This document shows, piece by piece, positions 36,702-55,120 of a DNA stretch of 64,000 nt (its first letter is position 1; every line of letters starts with the position of its first letter). This DNA comes from Candidatus Micrarchaeota archaeon (lineage in GTDB: Archaea > Micrarchaeota > Micrarchaeia > Anstonellales > Bilamarchaeaceae), in contig JACRGD010000007.1 in NCBI GenBank assembly GCA_016212525.1, positions 284,778 to 348,777 of the forward strand, written 5' to 3'. The translations under genes and the position numbers were made by a program. The notes below the pieces were generated by a model that made no database searches, had not been told where the DNA came from, and was given only the letters and a program-made list of their open reading frames with translations.

Positions 36702-36761
36702 GCAGCAAGCGTTATCGTCGAAATAGCAAAACATTAATTAGGTTCCCTGCTAACGCTAACT

Positions 36762-37229
36762 ATGGCAAGCAGGAGAAGGCAAACCCCAGGTCATACAGAA
36801 GCCAAAGCTCCAGGACAGGATAAGGGAAACTTTGAAGCACTCTTAGTGGCAGTAAGTTCAACTAAAACCAGGGCACAAATAATCGAGGGCCTAAGAAAAA
36901 TGGGGCAGATAAGCGACACAACGATAGATATGCTTAGAATACCAGATAGACTGGAAGCTACCTCCAGAGCGTCTCCTTTTGAAATGGTTTTTTCAGAACG
37001 AAGCGAAGGTTTGCCAGAGGGAGCACTTGGAAGAATAGTCGGACACAATGCATCAGAGCCGGACTTAGATCAATATTTCCTTGCGATCTACGGAGAGGGA
37101 AACAAAGTCTATTTTATAGTCAATGACCCTCGAACTGGGCACGAACCAAGATGTGCATACGTGGGTGGAATATATACAGAAGAAGGAAAACTGCATTTTG
37201 ATAAAATAATCGGCCCGAGTATCAAATAG
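36762..37229 (+). CDS. Hypothetical protein (155 aa) with a basic disordered N-terminus, convergent with the giant-gene operon
   Basis: An ORF only. The N-terminus is MASRRRQTPGHTEAKAPGQDKG. No motif was recognised. Confidence 0.4.
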   Translation: MASRRRQTPGHTEAKAPGQDKGNFEALLVAVSSTKTRAQIIEGLRKMGQISDTTIDMLRIPDRLEATSRASPFEMVFSERSEGLPEGALGRIVGHNASEPDLDQYFLAIYGEGNKVYFIVNDPRTGHEPRCAYVGGIYTEEGKLHFDKIIGPSIK

Positions 37230-37313
37230 GCAAAAAAGTCATCAGATCCAACACGCCAAACACAAAGAATCAGACGACCAAAACGATTTTGTTGAACTTT
37301 GTCCACTTAATCA

Positions 37314-38189
37314 CTAATAGATTTCCAAGTTTGAAGGCAATGAAGCCGAATATGCCAGCTGTTTAGCCTCATCGCTTATTTTCCTAAATTCAGCCTCATC
37401 GAAAGAACCGGAAACACAACCCAGCGCCACATATTTTGGAAGAAGCTCAGTTAGATAAGCCAGATATCTTTTTTGATAGAATGCATATGCACGCCATTGA
37501 GATTCGCAGACCGGGCCGGCATAGTATTCATGAATGACGTCGGTAGAGGGTCTTGGAGCTCCACGCATATGAGAATAAACTTCTACATCAAAAAGAGCCC
37601 GATCGAAAAACTCATGCATCGGCAAGTGGGCATAGCCACGTGGGATGTATATTTGTGCACCTGGATTGTCAGAAACCAGTTGGAAAATCTGAGTTCGAAG
37701 ATCAACATCCCGTTCATAAGCGATTGCAGCGGATAATTTTAAGTCAGAAACGGGATTTGAAGGGCGATTTCGGGCCAAAAAATAAAGCCAGTTGGCAGAT
37801 AGGCTTAGTTTTTCAGGAGCAACTAAAACAGAACCGGGAGAATGTGAATTTTTATCCAAAACTGCATCAAGATAACCCCAGTCAAACCAATCACGATGAA
37901 CATTTGGAGCAATGCCCGCGTTCACTTTTGAAGTAAAACCATCATAAACAACATCATCTACTGCAGAAAGATGATCTTTCATTTGACCAAAGGCATTTGA
38001 AGGGGAAGAAGGGGTAAGGGTAGCAAAAAATTCAGGAACAATAATTTGACGTTGTGAAGGATTAGAAGCAAGAATTCTTTCGCCTATTTTTCCAAAAAAG
38101 TTTTTATCTGGGCCATATGGAACCGGACCAATAGCACCTGCATGTTCGCCAAAGAAAAAGACAAGGCGGGGCTTTCTGGAACAAAACAT
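37314..38189 (-). CDS. Hypothetical protein (291 aa), last gene of the giant-ORF cluster; weak Tiki/ChaN/erythromycin-esterase-like motif pair
   Basis: LVFFFGEHAG near the N-terminus and PRGYAHLP later recall the GExH...GxxH motifs of the Tiki/TraB/ChaN superfamily. This assignment is very tentative. It lies 31 nt downstream of the 167-aa gene. Confidence 0.45.
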   Translation of the reverse strand: MFCSRKPRLVFFFGEHAGAIGPVPYGPDKNFFGKIGERILASNPSQRQIIVPEFFATLTPSSPSNAFGQMKDHLSAVDDVVYDGFTSKVNAGIAPNVHRDWFDWGYLDAVLDKNSHSPGSVLVAPEKLSLSANWLYFLARNRPSNPVSDLKLSAAIAYERDVDLRTQIFQLVSDNPGAQIYIPRGYAHLPMHEFFDRALFDVEVYSHMRGAPRPSTDVIHEYYAGPVCESQWRAYAFYQKRYLAYLTELLPKYVALGCVSGSFDEAEFRKISDEAKQLAYSASLPSNLEIY

Positions 38190-38210
38190 AAATATGAATT
38201 AATTATAACA

Positions 38211-38218
38211 ATTTAAAA
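38211..38218 (-). promoter_or_regulatory. TATA-like box (TTTTAAAT) upstream of the 291-aa gene
   Basis: It lies 21 nt upstream of ATG 38189 in an AT-rich 31-nt spacer with no Shine-Dalgarno motif. The promoters at 36168 and 52547 have similar geometry. Confidence 0.3.
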
Positions 38219-38220
38219 GC

Positions 38221-38724
38221 CTATTTCCTAGCTCTTTTTGGAGGCAAAGGCTCCGGTGGAGTAATCTGACGAACACGAAGAGCAGGGGTCAGAGGAGGTG
38301 GATTTCTCATTAAAAGATCAGTAATGGGAGAATGAGTGGGTTTAAGGGATTTAAAAGCAGCAACTAAAGAAGAAGGCAGAGGAATCCCGTCATCGATAAA
38401 ACGTCTGGCGATTTTCACGGTTAAATCAAGATACGTCCGACGTGAACTCGAAGTAGATGAGGATGCTTTTAAAAGTAAATGAGACGTTGCAAAAGTAGCA
38501 ATAGTTTGCCAAAAAGAATCAAAAGAAGTATTTGAGATCAGCCCTAAAATCTCATCTGCGCCACCAGGGTTGGGATTAGCATCAAATTCAAGAATTTTTT
38601 TGGCAATATCATGAACTTTGCTCACGTCAGGATCTAAAGAAGACAAAGCAGACTGCTCTGAGTCGGACAACGATTCGGTCCTAAGAAGTTTTTCAAATAA
38701 CAGGGTAAGTTGGGAATATTCCAT
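38221..38724 (-). CDS. Hypothetical protein (167 aa) translationally coupled to the giant ORF; Pro-rich basic C-terminal tail
   Basis: A TAAATG junction links it to the giant ORF, and GGTGAT lies upstream. The tail is RNPPPLTPALRVRQITPPEPLPPKRARK. No family was recognised. Confidence 0.55.
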   Translation of the reverse strand: MEYSQLTLLFEKLLRTESLSDSEQSALSSLDPDVSKVHDIAKKILEFDANPNPGGADEILGLISNTSFDSFWQTIATFATSHLLLKASSSTSSSRRTYLDLTVKIARRFIDDGIPLPSSLVAAFKSLKPTHSPITDLLMRNPPPLTPALRVRQITPPEPLPPKRARK

Positions 38725-41700
38725 TTAATCACCACTAGTAGATCCTCCATGACGATGCGGAAAGAATAATCTTTCGCCCATTGTTCCAGGGTGGAAACCA
38801 TTTGTTCCGCCATCAGGCATAGCACGACGATTGCTGTCCATATATGCAAAAGGTGCACGAAGAGTAAATGTTGAGTAGCCTTGATTAAGTGGACGGTTCG
38901 CAGGAAGAACAGTGCCATTTGCCATAGTTCTGCTTTCGCCAGATAAAATTACTGGCTCAACGGAGGTGTCAGGCACAAGAGAAGGAGAATCAAGATCGTA
39001 AGAGCGAACTTCAACACCCAGTGGTTCATATCTAGAGCGGAGATTGGCAAGAATCTGGGCCTCAAGTTGTTGTCTTTGTTCAGAGGGAATATCTCTCAAA
39101 CCATAGGCAGGCTGGACCATTATAATGGGCCGACCATCATCGCCAATAAGAAGATTAAGAGTTTGCCGGTATAATGTGTTTGGAGATCCCTCAATTGGAA
39201 TAATTATCTGTCTGATCCAGGGTTGTGCAACAGAACCTACTATTCCTCCAACCACAGGATGTGTGTTTGTCGGGACCTGGCAGGCTTCATTACCAGCCAC
39301 AAGACCATAGCGGAAAGAACGATCGAAATCTCCGGTTTCGCTAACACGATATTGTCGGGTAGAGGAACCATCAGAAACACTAACCGAGAAATCATGGTTG
39401 TTGGTCCACATATTCCAGAGAGCACCAGAATCAACCGATGAATGAGAGCAGACACGATCAAGTTCAGCCCTAAATTCAGGAGGGAATTTAAAGTCCCTAA
39501 AAGTTCCGTTTGCATGGGCTGAGAGTGCACGATCAAGAACTGCGATGGCCTGGGTAAATTGAGCCGAAGTGGAGGTATGGGAACCTATACGCTCGGCCCC
39601 GCCATTAGCTAAAGCAGAGAGAGTATTGCGATAAGTTACATACTGAAGGAAAAGATCGACATTGGAGCTTAGCCATTCTTCAGTAAGATTTGCAGATGGA
39701 ACCAGAGTCCTAAATAGGCGAACACCAGCTTCAATAAATTGATCCGGATGAGCAGAGACACTGGCAATAAATTCGTTCAGTCGTAATGGAGAAATAGCAC
39801 CTGAGCGTGAAAACTCATAGATGCTGTTTATCATGCGGAACCTGCGGTTTATGAAATCGGCCCGGGCATCATCGACAACCCTGCCAGAACCCCTAAGCCG
39901 GCCTAGCTCACCTGATACAGAATCAAATACCCGATTTATTGCATCGGAATGTGCGATTCCAAGCAAACCAGAATAATAAGAGTCAAGAGATGTTTGAGTG
40001 TAGCGGGCAGGAGCAAGAAGACGAACCATAAATCTTCGTGAAGATGCAGGATCACTAAAGGTTGCATATTCCTGAGCATCATGCCTTACATATCCATCAA
40101 AGCGATAACCAACTTGTTCTGCCATGATACGCGGATGATGACCTACCCGCATAGTAGCTAACTCTGGACTAAGAGTAAAGGGAGTTGCAGAAGCAGGAAC
40201 CCCCTCTACAATAAGACCCTGATTACTTGCATCTGTATATTCAGAGCGCTCTCGAGCATAGTTAATTAATAACTGGGCAAAATCGGCATACGCACGATCG
40301 TTTGGCATGGCCTGTCTGATAAGCTTAACATCAAAAACCCTAAATGGATTTGAAGTCTGCGAACCAATCTGGGGACTCCTCAGCATAAGCTCTCCTAGAA
40401 TTGGGAGTCTGCGAATCCTTCTTGGATGCAAATCCCGATTTGCACCGACAACCAGAACTCCACTGTCTCTTGCCTGTGCATCTAATTCAGATACCCGGCC
40501 AAGAAGTTCTTCTGAATGCGAATAGTTTCGAGCGCACAAATCAAGATAGATTGATCTTAAACCCTCTGGCAATCTGGATGCGTCCTCAAGTGCCATCCTA
40601 AACATATTGCCAAGGGCAGCATGAGACTCTGGAGGACTTGATCTAAGGCTAGATGCAAAAAAAGAAAGGACTCCATTAATTGGTTCAAGATTATTTTGAG
40701 GTCTTGGAAACAGACTAAATAGATCAAAGCGCGAATCAGTAGATCCAAGTGCACTACCTACCAAAAGAGAGCTCAGGGATTCGGGATTTGTAACGGCCAG
40801 GCGGGCACAAACATAATAGAGATCGGCTGAACCGGACGTAATAGTAGTGGCATCGAAAGACTCGTATTGACTCCACACACGATATGAATACCTGATTGCC
40901 TCATAATATTCCGAATATACAGAATTAATTCTCTCTAAAGGCACGTGTTCGACAATATAACGGGCAGACTCAACGATACTATCGATACGACTACGATTAG
41001 GCCCGCTAAAACCAACGGCATGTTCAATATCCCGTGAGATCAAAGCAGAAATCATAGATGACTCAAGACAATCAGCCAAAGTCGGCTGCACATGACCTCT
41101 CGCCTGAGCATATCTCATAGCCAGAGCGGCACCAACCGCCAAATCAGGATCCGCATGCGGATTTGAAGCGGCTTGCTGAATCTGCTGGGCCCGGGACACC
41201 AGATCAGCGGAAATTTGGATTAGACGTGCAGTATAAGACAAAGAGGAACTTTCATTAGGGTAACCAAAAACAATATCCCTAAACATAGGATCTGACCTAT
41301 GAGATATAAAAAATTCCAGGGCAGGAGCATACTGGGCAGCTGCAACATCAGGAGCAACACCATGCGCAACTGCATCTCGAACCAGATCGCGCATTGCAAT
41401 AACAAGCGGCCCTCCTCTTTGAGCAACTATTTGGTCTGCTTGAGCACAAAGTTCGCGACCCAATGAAGATTCAGGAACATTTCTTAGGCGCCCTACAGAA
41501 GCGGCATAGTCAGGATGAACGCGCTCAACTTCCCGCATAGTAAGATTACCACTACGAACTTCATCAACCAGACGCCAGAGAAAAATTCCTACAGTTCGAT
41601 TATCATCGGTTAGATGGGGCATGAGCAAACTTCTCACTCTGGCCCAGGCCTGCTCGTTTGAGACAATATTGTGAACAACATCACGCTCGAGTGCTTCCAC

Positions 41701-44700
41701 AGTTGCCAGATCAACATTTGTTGAATTTGCTAAAATAGACTGAGCAACCACGCGAACAGATGGAGATGGAGGAGCAATAGAAGCTACTGGTTCAGAGGTT
41801 TGAGGTGCCCTGGCAGAAGCTCTCTGATCCAGAGCAGCCAAGGCACTGGAAATACCCGCCCTATAATAGGAGGCCCTTTCTTCAGAAGACACAGACGCGG
41901 GATCTACACACCGGACATAAATAGATGATTTTTCTTCTCCACGCTTAAGAGTAAAGCGAACATATGTTTCATCACCTACCTGAACGGCGCCATCGAATCG
42001 ATAGGCTGCACCATCAGAAGCAGTAACCTGAACAGCCCCAGGACTTAGATCGGACCCAAGAACTGCGCCAGGACTCCTTGCACGGCCACTAACAACAACT
42101 GCAGATTCTGGAAGATCAAGTAAAAAGTCGGCACTTGAGGTGGAAGTTGAGGTTGTAGTAGTCGATGAGGCCTGGGAAACCGGAGCAGTCCGAGACATTA
42201 CTGGAGGTTGAGGAGTCCGTGTGCTTGTGGCATCAGGCATGGCAGAGCGATTCTCGCCATCAGCGACGCCGGCAGCGAGCTGAGCTAGAGGTTCTGCCAC
42301 CTCCTGAACAGGAATCCTTGGAGCAACACGTGTTTCAACGCGATTAGGCCTTTGTGGAGAGGGTCTTTGATTTGGCGGAACAGTAGGCAACTCATCAACT
42401 TCGATAACTTCCGGCTCAGAACCGGGAGGATTGATTGTGGTTGGTCCCTGATGCCTGGCCGATTCGGCAAGCGGTCCCGGTCGTGCAGAAGCATCAAACA
42501 AATCTACACCAGTGTGTACCCGAAGCTCGTCTGCAGTAGTAAAGAACCGATCTGCATTTTCCCGGCTAACTCTGCCCGCAGACACTTCCACATCTAATCT
42601 TGCACGGACATATTCACGGTAGCCCGAACCATAACTCGCTCGTTGCTCAGCGGTAATAGTACCGGCAGTAACCATCGCATCCAGATCATGGTTCATCTGC
42701 TCCTGGGTAGTATGACGACCTTCAAGAACCATATAGCCGAACTGATTTGATACACCAAGTTCGGGATGATTGGGGTCATTAATTCCATAACCAACCCACT
42801 GGCCAGCAGTATTTGCCCGATAAAGAGCAGCTGCAACTTCGTACATATTATGAACATCGTTTCCGCTAATGTTTGGATCACTCTGCATGCCTAAATGAAG
42901 AAGGGCAACATCAGCAGCACCCTGCTCGAGCTGATTGTGCTGGGCTCGTGCCTGGGGAGTTCCCATTTCATTTTGCAGGTTTGCCATTTCATCTGCATGC
43001 ATTGTGAAGCGATAATTATTACGTGCAATTGGACGAGGGGCAACGTTTCCCTGATAGGTGAGATTGGCAACTGATGGAACTGCTCCAAGACCTCCAGTTG
43101 CAGTTGCAAGGCCATAAACTCCTCCATCATGATCTGCAAGGACACGCGCACGCGCTGCGGCCATTTCCGGAGTAACCGGACGTGGGGTCGATGAAACGTC
43201 CCTAGACGCAACTGCGGCGGAATGTGCAACCTCAACCGGAGTAACGGCAACCGGATCCTCTGGATGTGATGCATTGTAATTATCCAGACCAGTAGTAACA
43301 TCGCCTATCAAAAACTCAGAAGAGGCATTTCCAAAGTCCCGGTGCAACACAGAAACATCATGAACAGGATTTCCATTTGCATCACGGACCTGCTGGCCGT
43401 TTTGCATAACCGGCTCGATGCGCATTGCGACTCCATCCATATCAATCGCAACCGCTGCAGTTCGTACAACCGTGCCGTCTCTTAATCGACCTACAGCATA
43501 ACCGCTGTTGGCAGAACGACGATCGCCAAGTGCAATTTCACTTGCGGCATTATGATAATCATAAAGACTTCTGAAAAATTCGGATCGACCTTCTTCAGTT
43601 CGCATCTCATCGTAGAAAGCACGAACTGCCGGAGCTGATCTTGGATCATTCAATGCAACAGATGGCTCGTCAATTATCTCATCACTCATGAGGGCAAGAC
43701 CATCGATATACATTTCCCTTATTGTCCCATCAGGCATTCGGACATTCTGCCAGGTTCCAACTAAATCATGGATGTCCTGCATAATTCCGTAGTTGACCTG
43801 CTCGGGATTTCCACTCTGATAGGTTCTTCCATTTTCAAATGTATAGCCATGATAATGACGGGCAGTAAGAATACCTTGTGTACGGGCCAACTCTTCACCC
43901 AGCGCGGCAGCCTGTAGATCCTCAGTTTTGACAAATATTCTTCGAGTAGTTGATGGAGCACCATTTTCCCCGGGAATTTCAAGAGTAACTGCATATGCAC
44001 CACTAAGCCCTGCACGATAACTAACCCCGGTTATAGATGCCCTCTCAAATCCAGGTATCGTATGAATATTGTGTTCAAGTCCGCCAAGGGCAACCAAATC
44101 TGCAAATGCGCGGGCACCCTCAAGAGCCTGTGCCATAGTAAGGGAAGTAGGCTCACGATAAGTAATTCCACGAGAAGCCAAAAAGCCACAAATTCCCTCG
44201 AACTCGATTCGTTGCGGGACATTTAATCGGGCGATATTATTTACAGAGTGCTTCATTGCCGCAGTACCTGAAGAAACAAATGATGCTCTTAATTGTTGAA
44301 ATTGTTCCGGGGTTGCACCATGAGAAGTCAGAAGTGCATCCAGAGCATCAAGATTTCCCCCTGATAAAAAGGCATCACGCAGCTGGTTTTTGAGGGCATC
44401 CCTTCTCGCACCTGGTTCGTGAATTAGTGCGGTCGCTATTGCATCTGCACCACCTTCTGCATATTGCCTAAGAAGCATTCTTTGCATTTCTGGATTAATT
44501 GGTCCATGACCTTCTGCTGCAAAGGACATTTGCGCCCGCATCTGATCAACTGAAGCAGTTGCACCAGCCTGATCTAAAGTATGATTTAAGGCAGTTGTAG
44601 TATCAGCCAGACTAGTATTAAGACCCGCAAAACCGGAAGTTCTTAGTGCTTCAGTGAGCGCAGGAACATCAAAACCCAAAGCCGTCAGTTGAGGGGCAAC

Positions 44701-47700
44701 CGCAGGAATGCCACGATCAACATAGCCATTTCTCAGAGATTCTGCTGCATTTGGAGAATAATGCTGAGCCCTTCTTTCGCTTTCAGTAGTAGTTGTAGGG
44801 TTAGTACGCACTCGGCCACTTTCATTAAATGCAGTAACCCAGTCGTGGAAGAATCGCTGTTGTTGCAATGGATTTCGTTCGGCAAGACCAACTGCAAGGC
44901 TTCTTGCAAGAACCGGGTTTCCAGAAAATGATCGCAATGAATCGACCACAAGTCTTCCGGTTTCTTGACCCAATAGTTCGATCGCCCGGGCTTCGAATTG
45001 AGGCGAATTGATAGAGCGAATCAGATCTCTTCCTTGCTTTATCGATCCGTTTGGAGCGCGAAGATACTGATCTGAGAGAGTTGCAAGACCTTCTGCAGCA
45101 TGAGGATCCAAAAGTGCATGTGCCATATTAACCGCACGCTCTGCATATTCGGTCTCGGGTCTAGGCATCTGTGGCATCCGTGGAGCTGGCTGCTCACTAA
45201 ATCGGGCATAGGCAGTAGAAACCAACCCCGGTTCGCTAGCAGTACCGATTCCAAAGCCCCGCATATAAGCCTGGAATTGGGCAGGTGTTCCGCGAGCTGC
45301 GGCCCTAAATGCCTCGTTGGAAGTAAGCAAGCGAACGGCTTCCTGCCCAGAGGAAGATAGAGTTGCCAGAAGTGGATCGACACTACCCTCACGACGAACT
45401 GCCGCACGGGCCAGTGCTGCAAGATCTTCAACAGAGCGAATTTCAGATGGAACAGTAAACTCATGTCTTCTTCTTTGCTCAGCACGCCTGAGTCTGGCAA
45501 GCGGATCGGCGCGGGGAACGGAAGTTGTAGAAGTAACACCGGGAGCAACCGGCCTAAGCGGCGCTGGAGTAGCTGCAACCGGCGCAGGCAGAACTCCCGC
45601 CCTCACAAGCGCCTCATGGGTCAATCGTAATCTCACCGGATCAGTAGCCCGCTGGAATTCAGGACGATTAGAAAGTTCGGCTACAACGCGAGCAGTATTC
45701 AAAGTACCAAGTGGATTGGAATTTGCAGCTGGATCCATAACACGCAGATTTCGAAATGCTACCTGCTCAGTAACCGGACCGGAACTACTTGCAAGTGCAG
45801 CAGCACGGACAACCTGAGCAGTTTGAGTATCTGAAATCGGAATTGTAGTAAAATCATTGGCATATGCTACTGCAGCAAGTTCAGAAGTGCGACTATTCGC
45901 TCGCATAACTGGAGCATATACTTCATGAATCGCCAGTGCAACTACAGCCATTGCAGGCGTGAGAGTTGGTGAAGTTGTAACTGGAGCTTCAAGAGGACGA
46001 ATGGCAACAGGAACTTGCCTGGCAGTGCCAAGAACCCGAGTCTGTGGAGCGACCCGGGCAGTAGTTGGAGAAGTACCATTAAGACCAGAAACAAATTCTG
46101 GATTCGAAAGCAAAAGGAGCGCGAGAGTTCCGACATCTGCAGGCAGACCAGCCAGGCCAGCTGCACGCTGAGCCTGCTCACGGGTTACCACTGCTGTTGA
46201 TGAACCCCGCTGCTCATGCAAAGAAGTTGCAAGAGCAACTGCAGATCGTAAATTTTCCCGCTCTGCCGGAGGCATGTTTGCAAATACAGGATCAGATGAA
46301 TTTGAACCGGAAAATAGACGCTCTCTAGTACGCGCAAAGTTTTCCCTTGCAGCAGAAACGAAATCAGTAAGTTCGGGAGTAACACTTGAGTAGCCTTCCA
46401 AAGTACCTATGAGTGCCTGGGTATTTGGCAATGTCTCGGATTCAGAAATATGATGCGCAAGGAACAGCCGCTCGCCTGCGCTCAAATAGCGACCCAAAGT
46501 CGCCTCCACTGAACGAAGAGCTGCCTGACTAGAAGCCGGAAGAGCACCAAGTATTGCATCTGCATGCGCCTCATAAGCAGCAATTGCATGTGATAGAGCA
46601 ACCGGATCCCGGGCCAGTGCACTGCCCTCGCCAGAAATCATACGCAAAACATCATGACGTAATTCGAGACTGTCTGGAACTCCTGAGAGTGCCATTGCCC
46701 GATTGAAGTTCTCGCGCGTCTGTGCATCGAGGGATTGTGAAAGAGTTCTGACCCGCTCCGAAAGTCGGGCATTGTACATTTGAGCGGCCTGGTATCGATT
46801 GACACCGAAAAATCCAGCCATTGCAAATCGATAAGCTCTTGCACGGAAACTCGTTCCGAAAACCAATGAAGAATTGGCCTCACCGACAAGCTGGAAACCG
46901 CGCATCAAGCCAGGCTGGGCAGCATTGAAGAAAATCAGGCCATATTCAAATAGACCGGCTCCAGGATCACTATGCCATGTTTCATAAACAGAGCCCACAC
47001 CGATCGCAACTCCGCCAAGGCCCATAAAATAGGCCAGACCAGTATTGACTCGTTGGAGATTGAGAAGGGTGGCTTCGCCAACTAGGGCAGTCCCGCTAGG
47101 TGCGAGTTCGCCGCCAAGTTCAGTTGCCAGTCCACCTAAACCATGACTAACTACACCAATGCCGGCAAGCGCAATCCCACCAAGTCCCAAAACCCTCTGA
47201 AGAGTAGTGAGATTCTCTGCACCGCCAACAGCTCGGGCCTGATCGAAATAACCGAAGGTCGATTCGCCAAGGAAGAATGGCGCAACAAGAACACCAAAAC
47301 CAGTTGCAGAGGCAAAACCTGCACCAAGAATTCTTCCAGCCATAGCTACATTTGAATAAACCCGCTCGCGCCGAACACCGCGCTCGACAAACTCCGCTGA
47401 ATCATAACGCTGGGTTCTTGCATTATCAACGTTGGTTTCAATTGTCATAAGCTGGCCGGGACTAAGAACGCCACCGGGGCTTTGTGTAATTGTGGCAAAC
47501 GCAGTTCCCAAAAATCCGAATGATCTGGTAAGTGAATCGAATGAGGATTGAGCCTGCCTTGCAGACACAGAGCCCCTAAAAGTCAAATTAGTCGCACTGA
47601 ATCCCGGAGTAAGAGTCGCAACTGTATTTGTGAAATCATCATCAACCTGCTCACTGATAGAAAGAATGCGATCGATATGACGTCTCTGATCAACAGTATA

Positions 47701-50700
47701 TGAAACCGGACGATAATGAACGCGCGCAGTCGGATCAGTATTTGGGATAGCGGCAAAGCCCAGATCAGCAAATACAGCAGCAGTATGGACATCGGTGAGT
47801 GTCAGACGTGCAGGTAATCCAAGTAGGGAATACCTTTGATTCAACTGATCGGCACGTAATTGTCTAAATTGAGAAGGCAAGGTACCGTCTTCAATGGAAG
47901 CGGCAACGTGAGTTGGATCTGCAATTGCACTGCCACCAAGCAGACCAAATTGATGCGCGCGATCTCGCATGACCGTGGCACCTTGAGGATCTAAGCGACC
48001 TGCAGCGTAGAGCCGATCTGCAGCAGCAAGAACAGTTGATTCTTCGCTTGCCATATGAAGTGCAACGTCACGTGCAGTCTCAGTTACTGATAAACGTCTA
48101 AGTCCATCAACATGATCTGCCTGAACCAAAAGGAACCGCTCTGCAGTTTCGCTAAGATCGCCCCGCGCTCGCAATAGACCAGTTCCACGGCGAAGCAGAT
48201 CAGGATGATGCAAAAGATAATCCATGACAGCAGTATCGCCACCAGTTTGAAGGGCATCGGCGAGTGCGTGCATGTGAACTGCGTATTGACGATCAACTCC
48301 GCCAAGGCCACGAGTCGGACCCGCGTCGCCCAGTTCAGTTACAATGCTTCGTGTGATCTCAATTGGAACCATATCACTTGCAGAGTTAAGATTTTCCCGC
48401 GCAGCAGCAAGAGCATGTGCTCGCTGCTCGGCTGCATTTGCATCAGCAGTTGCAGTGGCTGCAACCTGATCCAGATTTGCATCGCGCCGAACCTGTGCAC
48501 CATTTGGACTTAGAGTCCGATGGCCATGCGCATCAACATCATAATACACCCCTGCATATTGGCGGGCAGCAGCACGAAGAGCATCGGCAGTCCTTTGATT
48601 AGCCGTCTCCATATTGTAGAGCGTCTGACGCCCCTGATAAGTGGGAATAATGTTGGTTGAAAGATCATCGAAAAGCAGGTTGCCCGCCTGGACATGACCC
48701 GCCTCAATTTGACGTAGGGCCCGACCGGCCTGTCCCAAGAGGAACGCAGTGTCAAATTCTGCCATGCTTCCAGCTTCACGCTCCTCTGGACTGGCCTGTG
48801 CCAGCAGAACATCATGAGCACCAAATAGACCGACACGGATACTGCGCTCTCGAACCCGACCAGCTACACGCATTATTAATCGCTGTGCAGCTGCCAAATG
48901 ACCAGACCGGGCCTCGACTCTTGCACGCTCAAGATCATTATGTAAAGCCTGACCATCCACAATTGCAGTCGTGGTCGGGGCCAGATGATATCCGCCATCG
49001 CCATGAAGAACTACTTCCCGATCATGCATGACTCTGCCTGAAGAATCAGTAACCGAGGCAACAAGTTCCGTAACACTGCCATCAGCAGAAGTCGCAGTTC
49101 GCACAAGCCGGGCAGCCATATTGCGAATCGCAATAATTCGGGTTACCTGAGCATAGCCGGAACTAAAATCATGTCCTGCATCGCGAAGCCGATCCTGATT
49201 CAATTGGACAAACCCCGAACTCATAGGTTCAGTTCTGGATCCAACTTCAGAAATAGTTTGCTCGAAATTATCAGCAGCCCGAACCAATGCGAATCGGCCT
49301 GCAGTAGAGGGAACTGAACCGGCTGAAGTTACAACGTCCCGATGGAGCATGAAAGTTGCATTAGAGAGACCCAGACTGGCCTGATGCAGCATATTTGCCT
49401 GGGCCGTTAAATCCCGCGCATGCCTGCGCAAAATTTCGATCGCAAAGGCCTGATCATCATGGCCGGTTTCCCTCCTTGCAGTTTCTATTGCCGCAGCATA
49501 TTCAGGGCCACTTAGAGTAATTGCTGCCCTCTGATACAAAGCAGCTTCTGCAAATCTCGCCCCTGCCAGGTCGAGTGCACCCTGTGCATGAGTCATCCGC
49601 TCGCTTGCACGCACTGGATCAATAAGAGCTGCTTCACGGGAATAGAGAAGCATGTGAGAGGGGTTGGATGCACCAGAAGAAAATCTTCTTAATCGTGCAG
49701 ACTCACGCGCATAAGCCCTGGAAGTCGCTCCAAGAGCCATAGACTGGGTTCGCAATTCTGCACGAGCGTGCTCAAGCCGCATTTCCAAAGCGGAAAGATC
49801 GGCTTCTAAAATTTCACAAAGCTGGATTTGTGCAGAAAGAGCCTCGGAATAGACATGAGGCTCGCCATTTTCATTACGAACCATTGATGAACTACGCTGG
49901 CCCTCATAGCTCAGAGAAGGATTAAGTGACAGAATAATTGCACCGAAACTTTCTCCAGAGCGCATGCGGCGCTCCAGTTCAGCAAGTGGAGGAATTTGGA
50001 TTCCACTGGAAGTAGTAAAACCATGTTCATATTGGGCTGCAATTGTTGGATCATGACTAGCTGCAGCAAGAGTAACACTGTCAGCCATTGCACCAAGGAC
50101 TCCGATGTTTGCGCCCTGGCCGTTTTGAACCTCTAATAGAGAAAGTCGGGTAAAGCGGCCAAACATTGCACGTGCAGCCGGATCAGTAATTGCAGCAAGA
50201 GGAGCGCCACGGCTTAGATAGATCTGAGCTGCATTAAGTGATTCAGTTACGTTGGAATAGGTATTTGGATTGTTAATATTTCGACCAATTTCCAAGCGAT
50301 CCGGAGAATTGGTAGAATATGCCTGTGCAAATAGAAGAGCTGAAACTGCATGTGGCAAATCAGAAGTGAAGATCGAATCAAGTGCTGCTGCATAGTAACG
50401 GGCGGCATCTGCACGATTAGCAGGCGGTGCATGCGAAAGCGATTCGCGGGCATTTTCCAATTGAGATGAATACGAAGCGATTACTGGAGCAGATTGATCT
50501 GGACCAGATATCGCAATATGCCGAATCTGGGCAGAACTACCAAACAAAAGCGCAGTAGCCAAACGTAGTCTTTGCAGCTCTGAATCAGCAATTGTTTCAC
50601 CCCTATTGAGAATAGAAAGGGCATCATTAAGACGACCCAAAAGCCTCTGATATGCAGGATAGAGTTCACCGCATGCACGACGGTTTCTACATAAGACCTC

Positions 50701-52206
50701 AAGCCGATATCGGGATTCGCTAAGTGCAGTGACAGTTGAAAGGCGGGACATATTGAGATTTTGCTCAGAGGCAGCAGCCAAAATGACAGATCGGGATTGT
50801 TGATCGCCATGAAGATAAGCACGGGAAGCACCAAAGAGAGAACTGATTTGTTCAAATGGTGAGCCCGCGCCGATGTGAGCAAATAAATTAGCAATTATGC
50901 GGTTGTATCCACTAAGAGATTCTGCTCCAAAGTTACGTGGAATTCCAGAGCGGTCAGACGCAACTTCATGGGCAATTTCAACAAAACCAAAAATACGCTG
51001 GATGTTTTGAGAAGTAGGATCGAGTCGCAAGAGAGCAGCTCTGGTCTGCCTGAATTGTTCAGATAGTACTGCATCAGAGGGAACCTGAACTGCGGCTAAA
51101 AGAGTTTGAGTAAGAGAATGGATATCTGGATTTGGACCAAGAAGGGCAGCGATAAAGTTACGATCGGCAGGAAGATGGCCAAGTGAAATTGCTCTCGCAC
51201 TAAGAGAAATAAACTGGGCCAGCTCAGATTGCCCTGCAAGGGAAAATTCGATCGATCGTGTGCAAAGAGAAATGACATCGCGTCTTGGTGATTGGGATAA
51301 AATCTCAGTTGCACTTTCAAGTGCACCTCCAATTGAACTGAGGGTTTCAAGACCTGCACGATTTGGTAATCGACCCGAAGAAAGCGAATTTTGAATAGCC
51401 TCGAGCCGTTCTCGGGCGGCCTCCAATTGCCTTGAGAGAGCAGGATCCAGATTCCGCTCCATCAGATCGTCGCAATGACCTATGAGTCGCTCGACCCGCT
51501 CTGCGGTATTGGACCTTGCAAGAGTCAGATATTCTAAAAGAGAAGAATTTGAAGCGCGAAGGTTAGTAAGTAAAAATTCATTTGTTACTGAGGTATTTGA
51601 AAAATGTCTAAACACGGAACCATATTCAGGAAGCGCAGCCTGATCCAAAGATAAGACATCATGATTAGTCAGAAGAAGACCCACATAAGAGAGAGTAGAG
51701 GTTAGAAGCTCGGCATTTGGAGTCGAAGGATTTAGTGATCGAACAAAAGCAGCTCGAACCCCGGCAATCTCAGCTTGATCAAATCCAGCTTCGCGCATAT
51801 GCTGGACTGTTTCGACCAGAGATCCAAAATTTTCGACGCCAGCCCTAAGGGCATCACGCGCGGCAGGAGTAGGCGAACGCGCATAAGTTTGTGCAAGACC
51901 AGTAAGCGCACTAATTTCAGGGTTAAACTCCCTCTCAGCAGTGGCATCGAGCATACTTCGGACAAGACGCTCGACATAAGATGGAGTCGGAGGCAAAGTA
52001 CCTGCAAGTTGCCGTCCAAGATCCCGCACTGATTCGCGGGCAGCGTCTGCACGGGCAGCCGCATCGGAGAGGGGTGAGGATGCAGTTGGCTGACGGGTTG
52101 TGGGAGCACCTACAAGGGGAGCCAATGATTCACGCAGATGATCGGTAGCCTGGGCAGCTTGTTGATCAGCCAATTGTTCAGGAGTACGAAAATTTGGTCC
52201 AACCAT
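38725..52206 (-). CDS. Giant protein (4,493 aa) of unknown family: a lysine-depleted, Ala/Arg/Ser/Leu-rich multidomain protein
   Basis: A single uninterrupted 13,482-nt ORF with TAAATG coupling at both ends. Codon and amino-acid usage differ visibly from the flanks. There is no N-terminal signal peptide. Its sub-features are listed separately. Confidence 0.85.
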   Translation of the reverse strand: MVGPNFRTPEQLADQQAAQATDHLRESLAPLVGAPTTRQPTASSPLSDAAARADAARESVRDLGRQLAGTLPPTPSYVERLVRSMLDATAEREFNPEISALTGLAQTYARSPTPAARDALRAGVENFGSLVETVQHMREAGFDQAEIAGVRAAFVRSLNPSTPNAELLTSTLSYVGLLLTNHDVLSLDQAALPEYGSVFRHFSNTSVTNEFLLTNLRASNSSLLEYLTLARSNTAERVERLIGHCDDLMERNLDPALSRQLEAARERLEAIQNSLSSGRLPNRAGLETLSSIGGALESATEILSQSPRRDVISLCTRSIEFSLAGQSELAQFISLSARAISLGHLPADRNFIAALLGPNPDIHSLTQTLLAAVQVPSDAVLSEQFRQTRAALLRLDPTSQNIQRIFGFVEIAHEVASDRSGIPRNFGAESLSGYNRIIANLFAHIGAGSPFEQISSLFGASRAYLHGDQQSRSVILAAASEQNLNMSRLSTVTALSESRYRLEVLCRNRRACGELYPAYQRLLGRLNDALSILNRGETIADSELQRLRLATALLFGSSAQIRHIAISGPDQSAPVIASYSSQLENARESLSHAPPANRADAARYYAAALDSIFTSDLPHAVSALLFAQAYSTNSPDRLEIGRNINNPNTYSNVTESLNAAQIYLSRGAPLAAITDPAARAMFGRFTRLSLLEVQNGQGANIGVLGAMADSVTLAAASHDPTIAAQYEHGFTTSSGIQIPPLAELERRMRSGESFGAIILSLNPSLSYEGQRSSSMVRNENGEPHVYSEALSAQIQLCEILEADLSALEMRLEHARAELRTQSMALGATSRAYARESARLRRFSSGASNPSHMLLYSREAALIDPVRASERMTHAQGALDLAGARFAEAALYQRAAITLSGPEYAAAIETARRETGHDDQAFAIEILRRHARDLTAQANMLHQASLGLSNATFMLHRDVVTSAGSVPSTAGRFALVRAADNFEQTISEVGSRTEPMSSGFVQLNQDRLRDAGHDFSSGYAQVTRIIAIRNMAARLVRTATSADGSVTELVASVTDSSGRVMHDREVVLHGDGGYHLAPTTTAIVDGQALHNDLERARVEARSGHLAAAQRLIMRVAGRVRERSIRVGLFGAHDVLLAQASPEEREAGSMAEFDTAFLLGQAGRALRQIEAGHVQAGNLLFDDLSTNIIPTYQGRQTLYNMETANQRTADALRAAARQYAGVYYDVDAHGHRTLSPNGAQVRRDANLDQVAATATADANAAEQRAHALAAARENLNSASDMVPIEITRSIVTELGDAGPTRGLGGVDRQYAVHMHALADALQTGGDTAVMDYLLHHPDLLRRGTGLLRARGDLSETAERFLLVQADHVDGLRRLSVTETARDVALHMASEESTVLAAADRLYAAGRLDPQGATVMRDRAHQFGLLGGSAIADPTHVAASIEDGTLPSQFRQLRADQLNQRYSLLGLPARLTLTDVHTAAVFADLGFAAIPNTDPTARVHYRPVSYTVDQRRHIDRILSISEQVDDDFTNTVATLTPGFSATNLTFRGSVSARQAQSSFDSLTRSFGFLGTAFATITQSPGGVLSPGQLMTIETNVDNARTQRYDSAEFVERGVRRERVYSNVAMAGRILGAGFASATGFGVLVAPFFLGESTFGYFDQARAVGGAENLTTLQRVLGLGGIALAGIGVVSHGLGGLATELGGELAPSGTALVGEATLLNLQRVNTGLAYFMGLGGVAIGVGSVYETWHSDPGAGLFEYGLIFFNAAQPGLMRGFQLVGEANSSLVFGTSFRARAYRFAMAGFFGVNRYQAAQMYNARLSERVRTLSQSLDAQTRENFNRAMALSGVPDSLELRHDVLRMISGEGSALARDPVALSHAIAAYEAHADAILGALPASSQAALRSVEATLGRYLSAGERLFLAHHISESETLPNTQALIGTLEGYSSVTPELTDFVSAARENFARTRERLFSGSNSSDPVFANMPPAERENLRSAVALATSLHEQRGSSTAVVTREQAQRAAGLAGLPADVGTLALLLLSNPEFVSGLNGTSPTTARVAPQTRVLGTARQVPVAIRPLEAPVTTSPTLTPAMAVVALAIHEVYAPVMRANSRTSELAAVAYANDFTTIPISDTQTAQVVRAAALASSSGPVTEQVAFRNLRVMDPAANSNPLGTLNTARVVAELSNRPEFQRATDPVRLRLTHEALVRAGVLPAPVAATPAPLRPVAPGVTSTTSVPRADPLARLRRAEQRRRHEFTVPSEIRSVEDLAALARAAVRREGSVDPLLATLSSSGQEAVRLLTSNEAFRAAARGTPAQFQAYMRGFGIGTASEPGLVSTAYARFSEQPAPRMPQMPRPETEYAERAVNMAHALLDPHAAEGLATLSDQYLRAPNGSIKQGRDLIRSINSPQFEARAIELLGQETGRLVVDSLRSFSGNPVLARSLAVGLAERNPLQQQRFFHDWVTAFNESGRVRTNPTTTTESERRAQHYSPNAAESLRNGYVDRGIPAVAPQLTALGFDVPALTEALRTSGFAGLNTSLADTTTALNHTLDQAGATASVDQMRAQMSFAAEGHGPINPEMQRMLLRQYAEGGADAIATALIHEPGARRDALKNQLRDAFLSGGNLDALDALLTSHGATPEQFQQLRASFVSSGTAAMKHSVNNIARLNVPQRIEFEGICGFLASRGITYREPTSLTMAQALEGARAFADLVALGGLEHNIHTIPGFERASITGVSYRAGLSGAYAVTLEIPGENGAPSTTRRIFVKTEDLQAAALGEELARTQGILTARHYHGYTFENGRTYQSGNPEQVNYGIMQDIHDLVGTWQNVRMPDGTIREMYIDGLALMSDEIIDEPSVALNDPRSAPAVRAFYDEMRTEEGRSEFFRSLYDYHNAASEIALGDRRSANSGYAVGRLRDGTVVRTAAVAIDMDGVAMRIEPVMQNGQQVRDANGNPVHDVSVLHRDFGNASSEFLIGDVTTGLDNYNASHPEDPVAVTPVEVAHSAAVASRDVSSTPRPVTPEMAAARARVLADHDGGVYGLATATGGLGAVPSVANLTYQGNVAPRPIARNNYRFTMHADEMANLQNEMGTPQARAQHNQLEQGAADVALLHLGMQSDPNISGNDVHNMYEVAAALYRANTAGQWVGYGINDPNHPELGVSNQFGYMVLEGRHTTQEQMNHDLDAMVTAGTITAEQRASYGSGYREYVRARLDVEVSAGRVSRENADRFFTTADELRVHTGVDLFDASARPGPLAESARHQGPTTINPPGSEPEVIEVDELPTVPPNQRPSPQRPNRVETRVAPRIPVQEVAEPLAQLAAGVADGENRSAMPDATSTRTPQPPVMSRTAPVSQASSTTTTSTSTSSADFLLDLPESAVVVSGRARSPGAVLGSDLSPGAVQVTASDGAAYRFDGAVQVGDETYVRFTLKRGEEKSSIYVRCVDPASVSSEERASYYRAGISSALAALDQRASARAPQTSEPVASIAPPSPSVRVVAQSILANSTNVDLATVEALERDVVHNIVSNEQAWARVRSLLMPHLTDDNRTVGIFLWRLVDEVRSGNLTMREVERVHPDYAASVGRLRNVPESSLGRELCAQADQIVAQRGGPLVIAMRDLVRDAVAHGVAPDVAAAQYAPALEFFISHRSDPMFRDIVFGYPNESSSLSYTARLIQISADLVSRAQQIQQAASNPHADPDLAVGAALAMRYAQARGHVQPTLADCLESSMISALISRDIEHAVGFSGPNRSRIDSIVESARYIVEHVPLERINSVYSEYYEAIRYSYRVWSQYESFDATTITSGSADLYYVCARLAVTNPESLSSLLVGSALGSTDSRFDLFSLFPRPQNNLEPINGVLSFFASSLRSSPPESHAALGNMFRMALEDASRLPEGLRSIYLDLCARNYSHSEELLGRVSELDAQARDSGVLVVGANRDLHPRRIRRLPILGELMLRSPQIGSQTSNPFRVFDVKLIRQAMPNDRAYADFAQLLINYARERSEYTDASNQGLIVEGVPASATPFTLSPELATMRVGHHPRIMAEQVGYRFDGYVRHDAQEYATFSDPASSRRFMVRLLAPARYTQTSLDSYYSGLLGIAHSDAINRVFDSVSGELGRLRGSGRVVDDARADFINRRFRMINSIYEFSRSGAISPLRLNEFIASVSAHPDQFIEAGVRLFRTLVPSANLTEEWLSSNVDLFLQYVTYRNTLSALANGGAERIGSHTSTSAQFTQAIAVLDRALSAHANGTFRDFKFPPEFRAELDRVCSHSSVDSGALWNMWTNNHDFSVSVSDGSSTRQYRVSETGDFDRSFRYGLVAGNEACQVPTNTHPVVGGIVGSVAQPWIRQIIIPIEGSPNTLYRQTLNLLIGDDGRPIIMVQPAYGLRDIPSEQRQQLEAQILANLRSRYEPLGVEVRSYDLDSPSLVPDTSVEPVILSGESRTMANGTVLPANRPLNQGYSTFTLRAPFAYMDSNRRAMPDGGTNGFHPGTMGERLFFPHRHGGSTSGD
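39964..40107 (-). repeat. Internal protein module copy 2 (aa 4034-4081)
   Basis: YRFDGYVRHDAQEYATFSDPASSRRFMVRLLAPARYTQTSLDSYYSGL shares the YRFDG, Y.(T/R)F, VR, (P/A)A and SYY.G positions with copy 1. It starts 632 residues downstream of copy 1. Confidence 0.6.
41854..42003 (-). repeat. Internal protein module copy 1 (aa 3402-3451): YRFDG...VR...P...SYY.G
   Basis: YRFDGAVQVGDETYVRFTLKRGEEKSSIYVRCVDPASVSSEERASYYRAG aligns by eye with copy 2. Confidence 0.6.
42130..42490 (-). other. Pro/Ser/Thr-rich low-complexity linker in the giant protein
   Basis: The sequence is ARPGPLAESARHQGPTTINPPGSEPE...PPNQRPSPQRPNR...TRTPQPPVMSRTAPVSQASSTTTTSTSTSS. Confidence 0.6.
43400..44040 (-). other. PI3K/PI4K-like (atypical kinase) motif region of the giant protein (about aa 2723-2935)
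   Basis: RRIFVKTEDLQAAALGEEL (K2760) resembles IFKxGDDLRQDxL. ALGDRRSAN (D2895...N2900) resembles GDRHxxN. AIDMDG (D2922/D2924) resembles IDFG. The order and spacing match a kinase catalytic core. Confidence 0.4.
46800..47360 (-). other. Central Gly-rich hydrophobic cluster of the giant protein (about aa 1616-1802), putative membrane-insertion module
   Basis: Hydrophobic stretches include AMAGRILGAGFASATGFGVLVAPFFLG, VLGLGGIALAGIGVVSHGLGGLA, GLAYFMGLGGVAIGVGSVY, GLFEYGLIFFNAA and AYRFAMAGFFGV. GxxxG motifs recur. This is the only strongly hydrophobic region in the protein. Confidence 0.55.
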
Positions 52207-52524
52207 TTAGTTCACACTCTGATAGCAGAAAATTACAAACTCCTGCAAATTTTTAATGCGCTCATAAGAGGGAGCATTAGAACTACGAAGAATGAGAGTC
52301 TGACGGGTCCAGTGTTCAAGATCAGAAAGAAACCGCTTATGTTTTTGAAAAGAATTTGCATATTTTTCTTTTTCCTTTGAACCTTCCCAGATCGCAATAG
52401 CACCAGAAAGAGAAGTCAGAGTCAGATTTACTTTTTGAATTACAAGTTCCTCAACCTGATCGAGATTTTTCTCACTAACACCACCATCAACTCCCAGCAG
52501 GGAGGCCAAAGTCTGATCTGCCAC
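52207..52524 (-). CDS. Hypothetical protein (105 aa), first gene of the giant-ORF operon
   Basis: It has a GTG start with no Shine-Dalgarno motif and a TATA-like box at leaderless distance. Its stop TAA abuts the giant ORF ATG. No family was recognised. Confidence 0.5.
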   Translation of the reverse strand: MADQTLASLLGVDGGVSEKNLDQVEELVIQKVNLTLTSLSGAIAIWEGSKEKEKYANSFQKHKRFLSDLEHWTRQTLILRSSNAPSYERIKNLQEFVIFCYQSVN

Positions 52525-52546
52525 AAAATACTGAGTACATTGAGCG

Positions 52547-52553
52547 TTTTAAA
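52547..52553 (-). promoter_or_regulatory. TATA-like box (TTTAAAA) for the giant-ORF operon, leaderless geometry
   Basis: Exactly 22 nt separate the box from the GTG at 52524. No Shine-Dalgarno-like purine tract lies in between. Confidence 0.4.
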
Positions 52554-52671
52554 CTTAACTACAAGACCAGGCAAAGATACACTATAGTAATATACAACGA
52601 AAAAGTAGGAACTTTTTAGCAAATATAAATCTAAAAAGAGTGGGATTTTGGAGAAAAAAGTGAGTTTAATT

Positions 52672-52770
52672 CTAAATATCTTCACTTTCAACAATCTCAA
52701 AAGAATCACAGGACTGCGCCTGATCAGGTAAAAAATGAGCGTAAATGGAACAAAAGAAACCGGAAACCAT
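52672..52770 (-). pseudogene. Relic duplicated 3' end of the acylphosphatase gene (32-codon remnant ORF)
   Basis: It encodes ...SIYAHFLPDQAQSCDSFEIVESEDI*, compared with ...SIEYSFLPDQEQSCDSFEIVENEDTAE* at the intact acyP C-terminus (53325-53400). The upstream 70-odd codons of acyP are missing. Confidence 0.6.
52677..52743. repeat. Direct repeat copy A (acyP 3' end-like), flanking the hicBA cassette
   Basis: By eye, 52677-52739 aligns with 53336-53397 with 5 mismatches and a 1-nt indel. The shared core is TTCAACAATCTCAAAAGAATCACA. Confidence 0.8.
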
Positions 52771-52839
52771 TTGAGTGAAAATTACTGCAGCAGACTCACA
52801 ACAAATACATTAAAAAGTGAATAAGAGATTAATTATCTG

Positions 52840-53306: not shown

Positions 53307-53324
53307 ACTGAACAAATACCAGGA

Positions 53325-53627: not shown

Positions 53628-53669
53628 AAGATGAAGATAATGAGAAAAAAATATAAGCAGACCGAATAC

Positions 53670-55080: not shown

Positions 55081-55120
55081 AAAATTAAGAAAATTAGCGA
55101 ACCGCATTGTTATGCGATTC
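55081..55120 (-). terminator. Hairpin plus U-rich tract downstream of the thermosome gene
   Basis: The minus-strand RNA AAUCGCAU-AACA-AUGCGGUU forms 8 bp including one G-U pair. It starts 2 nt after the stop and is followed by ...AAUUUUCUUAAUUUUUU. Confidence 0.4.

Follow-up and report, generated by a model that had tools for sequence, protein, structure and literature searches.

In a 64,000-nt stretch of DNA from a Candidatus Micrarchaeota archaeon (contig JACRGD010000007.1 of assembly GCA_016212525.1, positions 284,778 to 348,777; this whole stretch is called the window below, and coordinates refer to it), a minus-strand gene cassette is built around an open reading frame (ORF) of 4,493 amino acids (aa) from which lysine has almost disappeared. 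The cassette is native to Candidatus Micrarchaeota and vertically maintained, and its giant protein belongs to an undescribed family in which the purge of lysine has recurred. We propose, as an account that we find plausible but somewhat short of probable, that the cassette encodes a giant membrane-associated multi-enzyme effector of host interaction, purged of lysine to escape lysine-directed modification.

The giant ORF (38725-52206, minus strand) encodes 8 lysines in 4,493 residues (0.18%), at positions 2390, 2606, 2652, 2760, 3421, 3426, 3961 and 4240. The first 2,389 residues are lysine-free, and further lysine-free runs of 660, 534, 278, 253 and 215 aa are found in the remainder. At the average lysine content of the other 48 genes of the window (7.4%), about 333 lysines would be expected; the binomial probability of eight or fewer is ~1e-134, and it is ~1e-26 at the rate of the neighbour lowest in lysine (1.9%). 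Arginine is raised to 8.8%, and the codons for asparagine and isoleucine are not purged. Lysine makes up 4-8% of the three operon partners (7.6% of the 105-aa protein) and is normal in the neighbouring genes of the window and of five other loci (5-8% in the relatives' loci). Clearly, the purge is specific to the giant protein and does not extend to its partners or neighbours. The near-total absence of lysine had been overlooked in the preliminary description of this DNA, which was made from the nucleotide sequence and its translated ORFs.

Employing aa 2301-3300 of the giant protein as the query in an exhaustive HMMER search of 1.84 billion representative proteins, we recovered 27 representatives with the kinase-like domain described below, most of them 3,000-6,650 aa long. 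P0002 (4,191 aa, 43% identity) and P0003 (5,122 aa, 30%) are collinear, full-length homologues of the giant protein; the remaining representatives mainly match aa ~2700-3090, and the N-terminal regions of the family evolve fast. A genome scan with a three-sequence alignment found two loci, both in metagenome-assembled genomes (MAGs) of Candidatus Micrarchaeota. The archaeal genes that neighbour the giant genes in the other loci include those for NAC, ribosomal protein S3Ae, RTC, ProRS and DHH. Three loci (L007, L009 and L010) have the ProRS and DHH flanking genes in common, and the giant gene therefore occupies a stable chromosomal position; such conserved positions in other Micrarchaeota speak against the foreign origin that had been suggested for the cassette. 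On a Micrarchaeota-like contig (L008), two giant genes lie close together (1-3159 and 8001-27959; 6,147 and 6,652 aa).

Neither the giant protein nor any of its four partners gave a significant match in Pfam, NCBIfam, PHROG or PADLOC, in agreement with the earlier failure to place them in a recognisable family. Pfam searches with 13 family members returned only sporadic Metallophos and PIN matches, and a PDB sequence search with the full giant protein returned no meaningful match. Another homologue search yielded nothing for aa 2301-3300 and one fragment for aa 4090-4493; it also missed the query's own entry as well as P0002 and P0003, so we give it no weight. In the searchable literature there is no description of the family and no report of lysine-depleted proteins in DPANN archaea. 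The giant family is undescribed, and its named records are almost all from Candidatus Micrarchaeota. These results support the view that an undescribed system is built around the giant ORF. They also bear out the assignment of the DNA to an archaeon of the DPANN group with a small genome: HY990_03695 of NCBI (Candidatus Micrarchaeota archaeon) and the 105-aa protein have identical sequences, and the related loci lie in Micrarchaeota MAGs.

Within the family, lysine content is largely bimodal, with few intermediates. The low-lysine members (the window protein, P0002/L012, P0003, P0004, P0015 and those of L010 and L013) contain 0.10-0.44% lysine, and most other members contain ~6-10%; P0011 has 1.06%, and four shorter representatives have 2.9-3.5%. 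In a tree of the kinase domain the low-lysine members are polyphyletic, and at the syntenic loci L007, L009 and L010 the giants have 0.15%, 7.25% and 0.42% lysine, respectively. Positions occupied by lysine in lysine-rich members are mostly arginine in low-lysine members. The kinase domains of the low-lysine members, both copies in P0004 among them, each keep exactly one lysine, the invariant one, and the invariant K4240 of the C-terminal domain is likewise retained. Together, the recurrence of the purge and the conserved lysines that outlast it point to two functional domains and to selection that has stripped the protein of every lysine it could spare. Neither genome G+C nor G+C at third codon positions (GC3) accounts for the purge: GC3 is 0.24-0.77 in low-lysine members and 0.44-0.79 in lysine-rich members, and wherever neighbours were compared, the GC3 of the giant gene was close to theirs.

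Two of the low-lysine proteins deserve separate mention. The lysine-poor P0004 has two copies of the kinase-like domain (aa 261-671 and 2110-2505), each with only the catalytic lysine. At L013 (10304-15790), a 1,828-aa protein with 0.44% lysine stands in the context of the family, directly after the conserved upstream small protein. Because this protein is low in lysine and no kinase-like or C-terminal domain was detectable in it, the purge is not strictly tied to either enzymatic domain.

The cassette had been described as compositionally foreign on the grounds of its G+C content, amino-acid usage and CGN arginine codons. The G+C content is indeed higher (0.50-0.52 within the giant ORF and 0.49 over the whole gene, vs ~0.40 in the flanks), and the computed composition bears out a protein rich in Ala, Arg, Ser and Leu. 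The excess is found at codon positions 1 and 2 (GC1 and GC2, 0.63 and 0.50, respectively), and the GC3 of 0.33 is inside the range of the neighbours (0.28-0.49); the raised G+C of the gene is thus due to its amino-acid content (few lysines), not to synonymous sites. CGN codons account for 0.71 of arginine codons in the giant gene, 0.69 in minus-strand genes of the window and 0.36 in plus-strand genes. Because it is common to all minus-strand genes, the contrast between CGN and AGA is an effect of the strand and not a foreign signature. At four-fold third positions, plus-strand genes of the window show A47/T19, minus-strand genes A26/T40 and the giant gene A24/T45; the relative synonymous codon usage of the giant gene correlates with that of the other minus-strand genes at r=0.94, vs only 0.57 with that of plus-strand genes. 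Clearly, the giant gene is native at synonymous sites, and the description of it as foreign does not hold. In an AT-rich genome, amino-acid content by itself can give a gene a high G+C, which does not necessarily reflect horizontal transfer.

The strand effect is a property of the window at large. Its plus strand is A-rich regardless of gene orientation, and synonymous usage is strongly strand-asymmetric (the ATA share of isoleucine codons is 0.55 on the plus strand vs 0.22 on the minus strand). This asymmetry resembles a strong mutational skew and may have to do with replication.

The kinase-like motif set noticed in the translation proved to be real on the basis of alignment, structural modelling and structure comparison. 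It belongs to a domain at aa 2690-3100 (42907-44139, minus strand). In an alignment of 18 sequences (A1), K2760 (in an FVKxEDL motif), D2895, R2896 and N2900 (DRxxxN) and D2922 (IDxD) are invariant, and conserved glycines are found in the loop ahead of K2760. The AlphaFold2 (AF2) model of the domain had a mean predicted local distance difference test score (pLDDT) of 83.3 and a predicted template modelling (TM) score (pTM) of 0.85. In a Foldseek search of PDB with this model, catalytic domains of PI3Kγ came first (E=9e-5, probability 1.0), followed by IGF1R, JAK2, FGFR, DNA-PKcs and ATM; all 19 matches at E<=1e-3 were lipid or protein kinases. The profile of alignment A1 found no kinase in a PDB sequence search.

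PI3K and PI4K domains are marked by a DRHxxN catalytic loop and a DFG-type start of the activation loop, and the lipid and protein kinases among bacterial effectors belong to the same set of comparisons. The domain of the giant protein has in common with protein-kinase-like and PI3K/PI4K domains a bilobal predicted fold, a glycine loop, an invariant lysine, DRxxxN and the aspartate of IDxD, with PI3Kγ as the best match. It differs from them in having no Pfam or PDB sequence match and low TM-scores, and in its location in the middle of a 4,493-aa archaeal polypeptide. The catalytic loop is DRxxxN with an invariant D-R, IDxD stands in place of DFG, and tyrosine kinases score near PI3Kγ. From the model and its matches, we conclude that aa 2690-3100 are predicted to adopt a protein-kinase-like fold in which the catalytic set is complete and the motifs have a PI3K flavour; judged by sequence, the domain is not a demonstrable member of the Pfam family PI3_PI4_kinase.

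The C-terminal domain (aa 4090-4493; 38728-39939, minus strand) is common to P0002, P0003, P0015, the lysine-rich P0010 and P0028, and K4240, C4309, Q4310, Q4365 and Y4368 are invariant in it. It is conserved at 28-53% identity across distant members, and P0001, P0002, P0003, P0010 and P0015 all possess it, with kinase domains that share only ~30% identity. No match was found in Pfam or among PDB sequences. The AF2 model (pLDDT 74.9, pTM 0.77) suggested a helical subdomain followed by an acyltransferase fold like that of Gcn5-related N-acetyltransferases (GNATs). In the Foldseek search of PDB, the ten best matches and nearly all of the top 50, though weak, were GNATs, among them the toxins GmvT and AtaT, the protein lysine acetyltransferase Rv0998, AAC(3)-Ib, NatD, SSAT and a ribosomal-protein-alanine N-acetyltransferase; N-acetyltransferases recurred among matches in BFVD, a library of viral structures.

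As in GNATs (including AtaT, TacT, GmvT and lysine acetyltransferases), the predicted core is β-β-β-long helix-β, with a VQPxY sequence at the β4-α3 position. Motif A of GNATs contains a pyrophosphate-binding loop, Q/R-x-x-G-x-G/A. In contrast to GNATs, the domain reaches E-values of only ~1e-2, its coenzyme A (CoA) pyrophosphate loop is not conserved, and a helical subdomain of ~180 aa with the invariant lysine precedes the GNAT-like fold; unlike in GNAT toxins, the partner gene lies downstream and does not encode a ribbon-helix-helix (RHH) antitoxin. On the predicted structure, the balance tips modestly towards a GNAT.

Between the N-terminus and the kinase-like domain, a Gly-rich hydrophobic cluster had been noticed, and we confirmed it at aa ~1611-1810 (46777-47376 for aa 1611-1810, minus strand). 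This module contains 18% glycine and the highest density of GxxxG in the giant protein, with Kyte-Doolittle peaks of 1.65-1.79 at aa 1626-1693. Many of its glycines are invariant, and a hidden Markov model of the module also matches P0015, P0011 and the lysine-rich P0007. Based on hydropathy, the module probably inserts in a membrane. The ~1,600 aa ahead of it (47407-52206, minus strand) are lysine-free, rich in Ala, Leu, Arg and Ser, without a family match and conserved in P0002 and P0003. As reported before, no N-terminal signal peptide was seen; the N-terminus is without a hydrophobic segment.

The Pro/Ser/Thr-rich linkers of the preliminary description are visible in the translation, with one at aa ~3240-3395 (42022-42489, minus strand). 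The duplicated module is a more qualified case. A YRFDG segment of ~50 aa does occur twice, at aa 3402 and 4034 (first copy aa ~3397-3450, 41857-42018; second copy aa ~4029-4080, 39967-40122; both minus strand), but the local alignment of the two copies is weak (score 55, z=5; best shuffle 54). Apart from this weak module, no significant internal repeat was found by BLASTP or windowed Smith-Waterman alignment.

The four minus-strand ORFs of the cassette were present as described: a 105-aa ORF with a GTG start (52207-52524), the giant ORF, a 167-aa ORF (38221-38724) and a 291-aa ORF (37314-38189). Read directly in the sequence, the 105-aa/giant and giant/167-aa junctions are both TAAATG, in which the stop abuts the next ATG, and a 31-nt AT-rich spacer precedes the start of the 291-aa ORF. 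The operon had been placed at 37314-52553; the ORFs stand, but the end does not, as 52553 is 29 nt past the start of the first ORF (52524). Every other gene in the window is at most 2.1 kb, and the giant ORF is an outlier in size, as claimed. The possibility of a chimeric assembly had been raised as a reason to doubt the locus. A Logan contig of 19,384 nt from SRR12113407 is 100% identical (0 mismatches) to 36312-55695 of the window, covers both operon boundaries and carries the same giant protein. Because this independent contig is identical and the gene order is kept in another genome, an assembly chimera is very unlikely; the four-gene locus is real.

The other genome (L002) mirrors the window in gene order: 104 aa, giant, 165 aa, 315 aa and a convergent 156-aa ORF. 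The identity to the window is 49%, 29%, 43% and 27% for the partners, in this order, and 44% for the giant protein. The cassette has a fifth conserved member that had been missed before, the convergent 155-aa ORF (36762-37229, plus strand), of a 150-240-aa family found beside giant genes. By BLASTP, its product matched L002_156 (E=5e-10) and L005_148 (E=2e-4), and it showed weak links to paralogous sets in L003, L004, L007 and L008.

The ~100-aa protein encoded upstream is homologous across the window, L002, L005, L007 and L008, and it lies directly upstream of a giant ORF (1,828-7,261 aa) in 11 of the 11 other loci that cover the 5' end of the giant gene. The family of the 105-aa protein comprises 24 clusters, all annotated as 'hypothetical protein', with named records from Candidatus Micrarchaeota and one from 'Candidatus ainarchaeum'; W46 and W72 are invariant in its alignment (A6). 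A relationship to WXG100 proteins, considered for its central WEG, was ruled out because the glycine is not conserved.

The translationally coupled 167-aa protein is homologous to the 165-aa protein of L002, and profile comparison links these two with the downstream proteins of L005, L007 and L009 (hhalign probability 85%, E=7e-6) in a family of ~170-185 aa. The C-terminal domain and the downstream gene occur together in all five loci that have either (the window, L002, L005, L007 and L009), and both are absent from L003, L004 and L008 (3/3). This strict co-occurrence argues for a functional pair, as had been suspected from the coupling of the small ORF to the C-terminus, and makes the 167-aa protein a candidate for inhibiting this domain, conferring immunity to it or serving as its cofactor.

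The 291-aa protein is 43% identical to the 315-aa protein of L002 and 27% identical to a 299-aa protein of L005, and it is conserved within the P0001-P0003 clade. Its family alignment (A9) shows invariant GEH (N-terminal) and GxAH (C-terminal) motifs and conserved Glu and Arg residues; searches of Pfam and PDB sequences, including one with the A9 profile, gave no match. The two motifs are reminiscent of the EreA/ChaN/TIKI/TraB hydrolase superfamily, a tentative lead.

Whereas gene structure, native composition, family, synteny, invariant catalytic residues, the kinase-like fold and the recurrent purge were established by the analysis, the localisation, substrates, partner roles and cause of the purge in the following course of events are inferred. 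The ~100-aa upstream protein may be an obligate chaperone or targeting factor; the giant protein would be placed at or in the membrane interface with a host archaeon, where it would phosphorylate and acylate host targets, and the ~170-aa downstream protein would inhibit the C-terminal domain, confer immunity to it or serve as its cofactor. Selection would remove every dispensable lysine, mostly putting arginine in its place. The recurrence of a purge that spares only conserved domain lysines argues for strong selection against lysine-directed modification. In archaea, ubiquitin-like tagging feeds the proteasome (PMC4569737, PMC4895103), and lysine-poor deserts have been tied to escape from lysine-directed tagging (PMC10665810). 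The purge may likewise make the giant protein unmodifiable by ubiquitin-like/proteasome tagging in the recipient. As a second, non-exclusive reason, it may prevent modification by the protein's own acyltransferase domain or confine it to the few retained lysines. A wider form of the proposal, which we regard as possible but rather unlikely, is that giant membrane-inserting kinase and acyltransferase effectors made by Micrarchaeota act on or inside archaeal hosts and have repeatedly become essentially lysine-free, either to evade a ubiquitin-like/proteasome defence of the host or to leave their own acyltransferase only one or two retained lysines, as in the activation of RTX toxins. If this is true, it would amount to an archaeal arms race over lysine tagging and to the largest natural lysine deserts known.

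Several points weigh against the effector proposal. The Foldseek TM-scores of the kinase model were low (0.22-0.28), and the giant protein had no Pfam match for PI3_PI4_kinase (PF00454) even at E<=1, nor for Pkinase or GNAT. The GNAT matches were weak (best E=1.5e-2, probability 0.90-0.97, target-normalised TM up to 0.53), and QPAYGLRD stands where the canonical Q/RxxGxG/A CoA-binding loop would be, with only Q4365 and Y4368 invariant in the VQPAYGLRDIP found there. Membrane insertion is deduced from hydropathy. Neither a signal peptide nor a known secretion or trafficking domain was found (Pfam, NCBIfam, PADLOC), and export and contact with a host are proposed, as are the host organism and its lysine-tagging system, both of which we postulate. 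Avoidance of self-acylation is not the whole explanation, because the C-terminal domain is present in P0010, which is rich in lysine, and missing from P0004, which is poor in it.

Of the other explanations that we considered, the strongest is a giant signalling or scaffold kinase of the micrarchaeon's own, active within its cell in the manner of phosphatidylinositol 3-kinase-related kinases (PIKKs), whose lifetime would be prolonged by escape from the ubiquitin-like tagging of that cell; we think it unlikely, though worth keeping in view. PIKKs such as DNA-PKcs, ATM and TOR are likewise giants, in which a long helical region is combined with a PI3K-like kinase domain, and two of them (DNA-PKcs and ATM) appeared in the Foldseek results; the missing signal peptide, the long N-terminal region (helical-looking in the judgement of the earlier reader) and the conserved chromosomal positions of the gene all suit such a protein. 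In PIKKs, however, the kinase domain is C-terminal. Here it is not, FAT and FATC were not detected, and a hydrophobic module and an acyltransferase-like C-terminus are present. The conserved Gly-rich module in mid-protein and the fast-evolving N-terminal regions fit an internal kinase poorly, and lysine-rich orthologues at the same locus argue against a general need for stability. Somewhat less likely again is a contact-dependent polymorphic toxin directed at competing archaea, in which a GNAT-like toxin (acetylating aminoacyl-tRNA, for example, like AtaT and TacT) is neutralised by the 167-aa protein. Like polymorphic toxins, MARTX and LXG-Lap giants, the protein is large and multi-domain, with a C-terminal enzymatic domain, a small coupled ORF and a small upstream partner; the strict co-occurrence of the C-terminal domain with the co-varying downstream gene and the presence of GmvT and AtaT among the structural matches point the same way. 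The classical layout suggested earlier nevertheless fails, because the C-terminal domain is retained among distant members (28-53% identity) and not swapped, no RHS, LXG, RTX or other known trafficking domain was detected, and no orphan toxin/immunity cassettes were seen in the loci examined. A toxin of this type would also leave the kinase domain and the lysine purge unexplained, and archaea are not known to have the cognate secretion systems of MARTX- or LXG-type effectors.

A structural surface protein or adhesin, with degenerate enzyme-like domains and lysine avoided for extracellular chemical or proteolytic robustness (against Lys-specific proteases or amine-reactive chemistry), appears improbable to us. 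Other DPANN archaea do possess giant surface proteins, namely the SPEARE proteins of Nanohaloarchaeota, with Ig/fibronectin-like repeats, a Sec signal peptide and a VirB4/TraG-like ATPase (PMC10266531), and the giant protein resembles them as a giant ORF of a DPANN episymbiont presumed to serve in host interaction. It also has P/S/T linkers and a faint Pfam match to Big_1 (E=0.024, below the cutoff of that family). But no signal peptide was seen, Pfam detected no significant adhesin or Ig-like repeat, no such ATPase and no sequence relationship to SPEARE, arginine is enriched rather than avoided, and the invariant catalytic residues are the very lysines that survived the purge. Hardly to be expected is a non-adaptive loss of lysine without functional bearing, for instance by mutational hazard, through avoidance of AAA runs in a long ORF of an AT-rich genome. 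Most low-lysine members do lie in genomes of low GC3 and several lysine-rich ones in genomes of high GC3, but the pattern is broken by the low-lysine L004 (GC3 0.62) and L010 (0.77), the lysine-rich L011 (0.44) and the lysine-rich giant of L003, whose locus has 41% G+C overall; besides, asparagine and isoleucine codons are not purged, the distribution is largely bimodal with only conserved lysines kept, and neighbouring genes keep 4-12% lysine. Least credible, and largely refuted, is a horizontally acquired, compositionally foreign island carrying a translocated toxin. It could draw on the G+C of the gene (0.49 vs ~0.40), on flanking genes that are not the same in the window and L002, and on a HicAB insertion with a 58-nt target duplication next to the operon. 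GC3 and codon usage are native, however, as described above, the CGN contrast is strand-wide, and four other low-lysine loci likewise combine native GC3 with raised GC1 and GC2; the family is restricted to a single phylum, at syntenic positions. A tRNA scan of the 64-kb window found no tRNA gene, an Rfam scan of it returned nothing, no integrase was found, and a search for att sites around the operon revealed no repeat bounding it; the sole repeat was the one bracketing the neighbouring HicAB pair.

Lysine-poor sequences are known from the A chains of toxins. Lysine deserts, defined as at least 150 aa, or at least 50% of a sequence, without lysine (PMC10665810), occur in components of the ubiquitin system and in phages of pupylating bacteria (PMC10665810, PMC10169902). 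By this definition the giant protein is a lysine desert, and its depletion is conserved in P0002, P0003, P0004, P0015, L010 and L013. As in the deserts described, long lysine-free stretches appear to be under selection, with arginine as the replacement; the giant protein differs in its far larger scale (2,389 consecutive residues; 0.18% over 4,493 aa), in being archaeal and in that the purge recurs independently within one family. Giant ORFs of DPANN episymbionts are mostly unannotated, and this family is a concrete, conserved candidate for how such archaea manipulate their hosts. It offers two assayable predicted enzymatic domains with defined catalytic residues, dedicated partners and an extreme sequence signature, and the lysine-rich and lysine-poor orthologues at syntenic loci are a ready natural experiment. 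If the selection is exerted by ubiquitin-like tagging in the host, this would be the first evidence of tagging as a defence in a symbiosis between archaea.

A direct repeat of 58 nt (91% identity; 52677-52734 and 53336-53393) lies just upstream of the giant operon and duplicates the 3' end of an acylphosphatase gene (53325-53627, minus strand). Between its two copies is a HicB-like (DUF7387) and HicA pair (ORFs 52840-53073 and 53073-53306, both plus strand), which looks like a small toxin-antitoxin insertion with target duplication. Elsewhere in the window, Pfam gave no match for several other sizeable ORFs, namely 30357-31817 (minus), 56947-57909 (plus), 4896-6104 (minus) and 14196-15548 (plus). 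At 700-30300 there is a cluster for nonulosonic acid and surface polysaccharide (NeuB, two CTP_transf_3, Capsule_synth, a Polysacc_synt/MurJ-like flippase and an aminotransferase), which may be relevant to the cell surface of the episymbiont.

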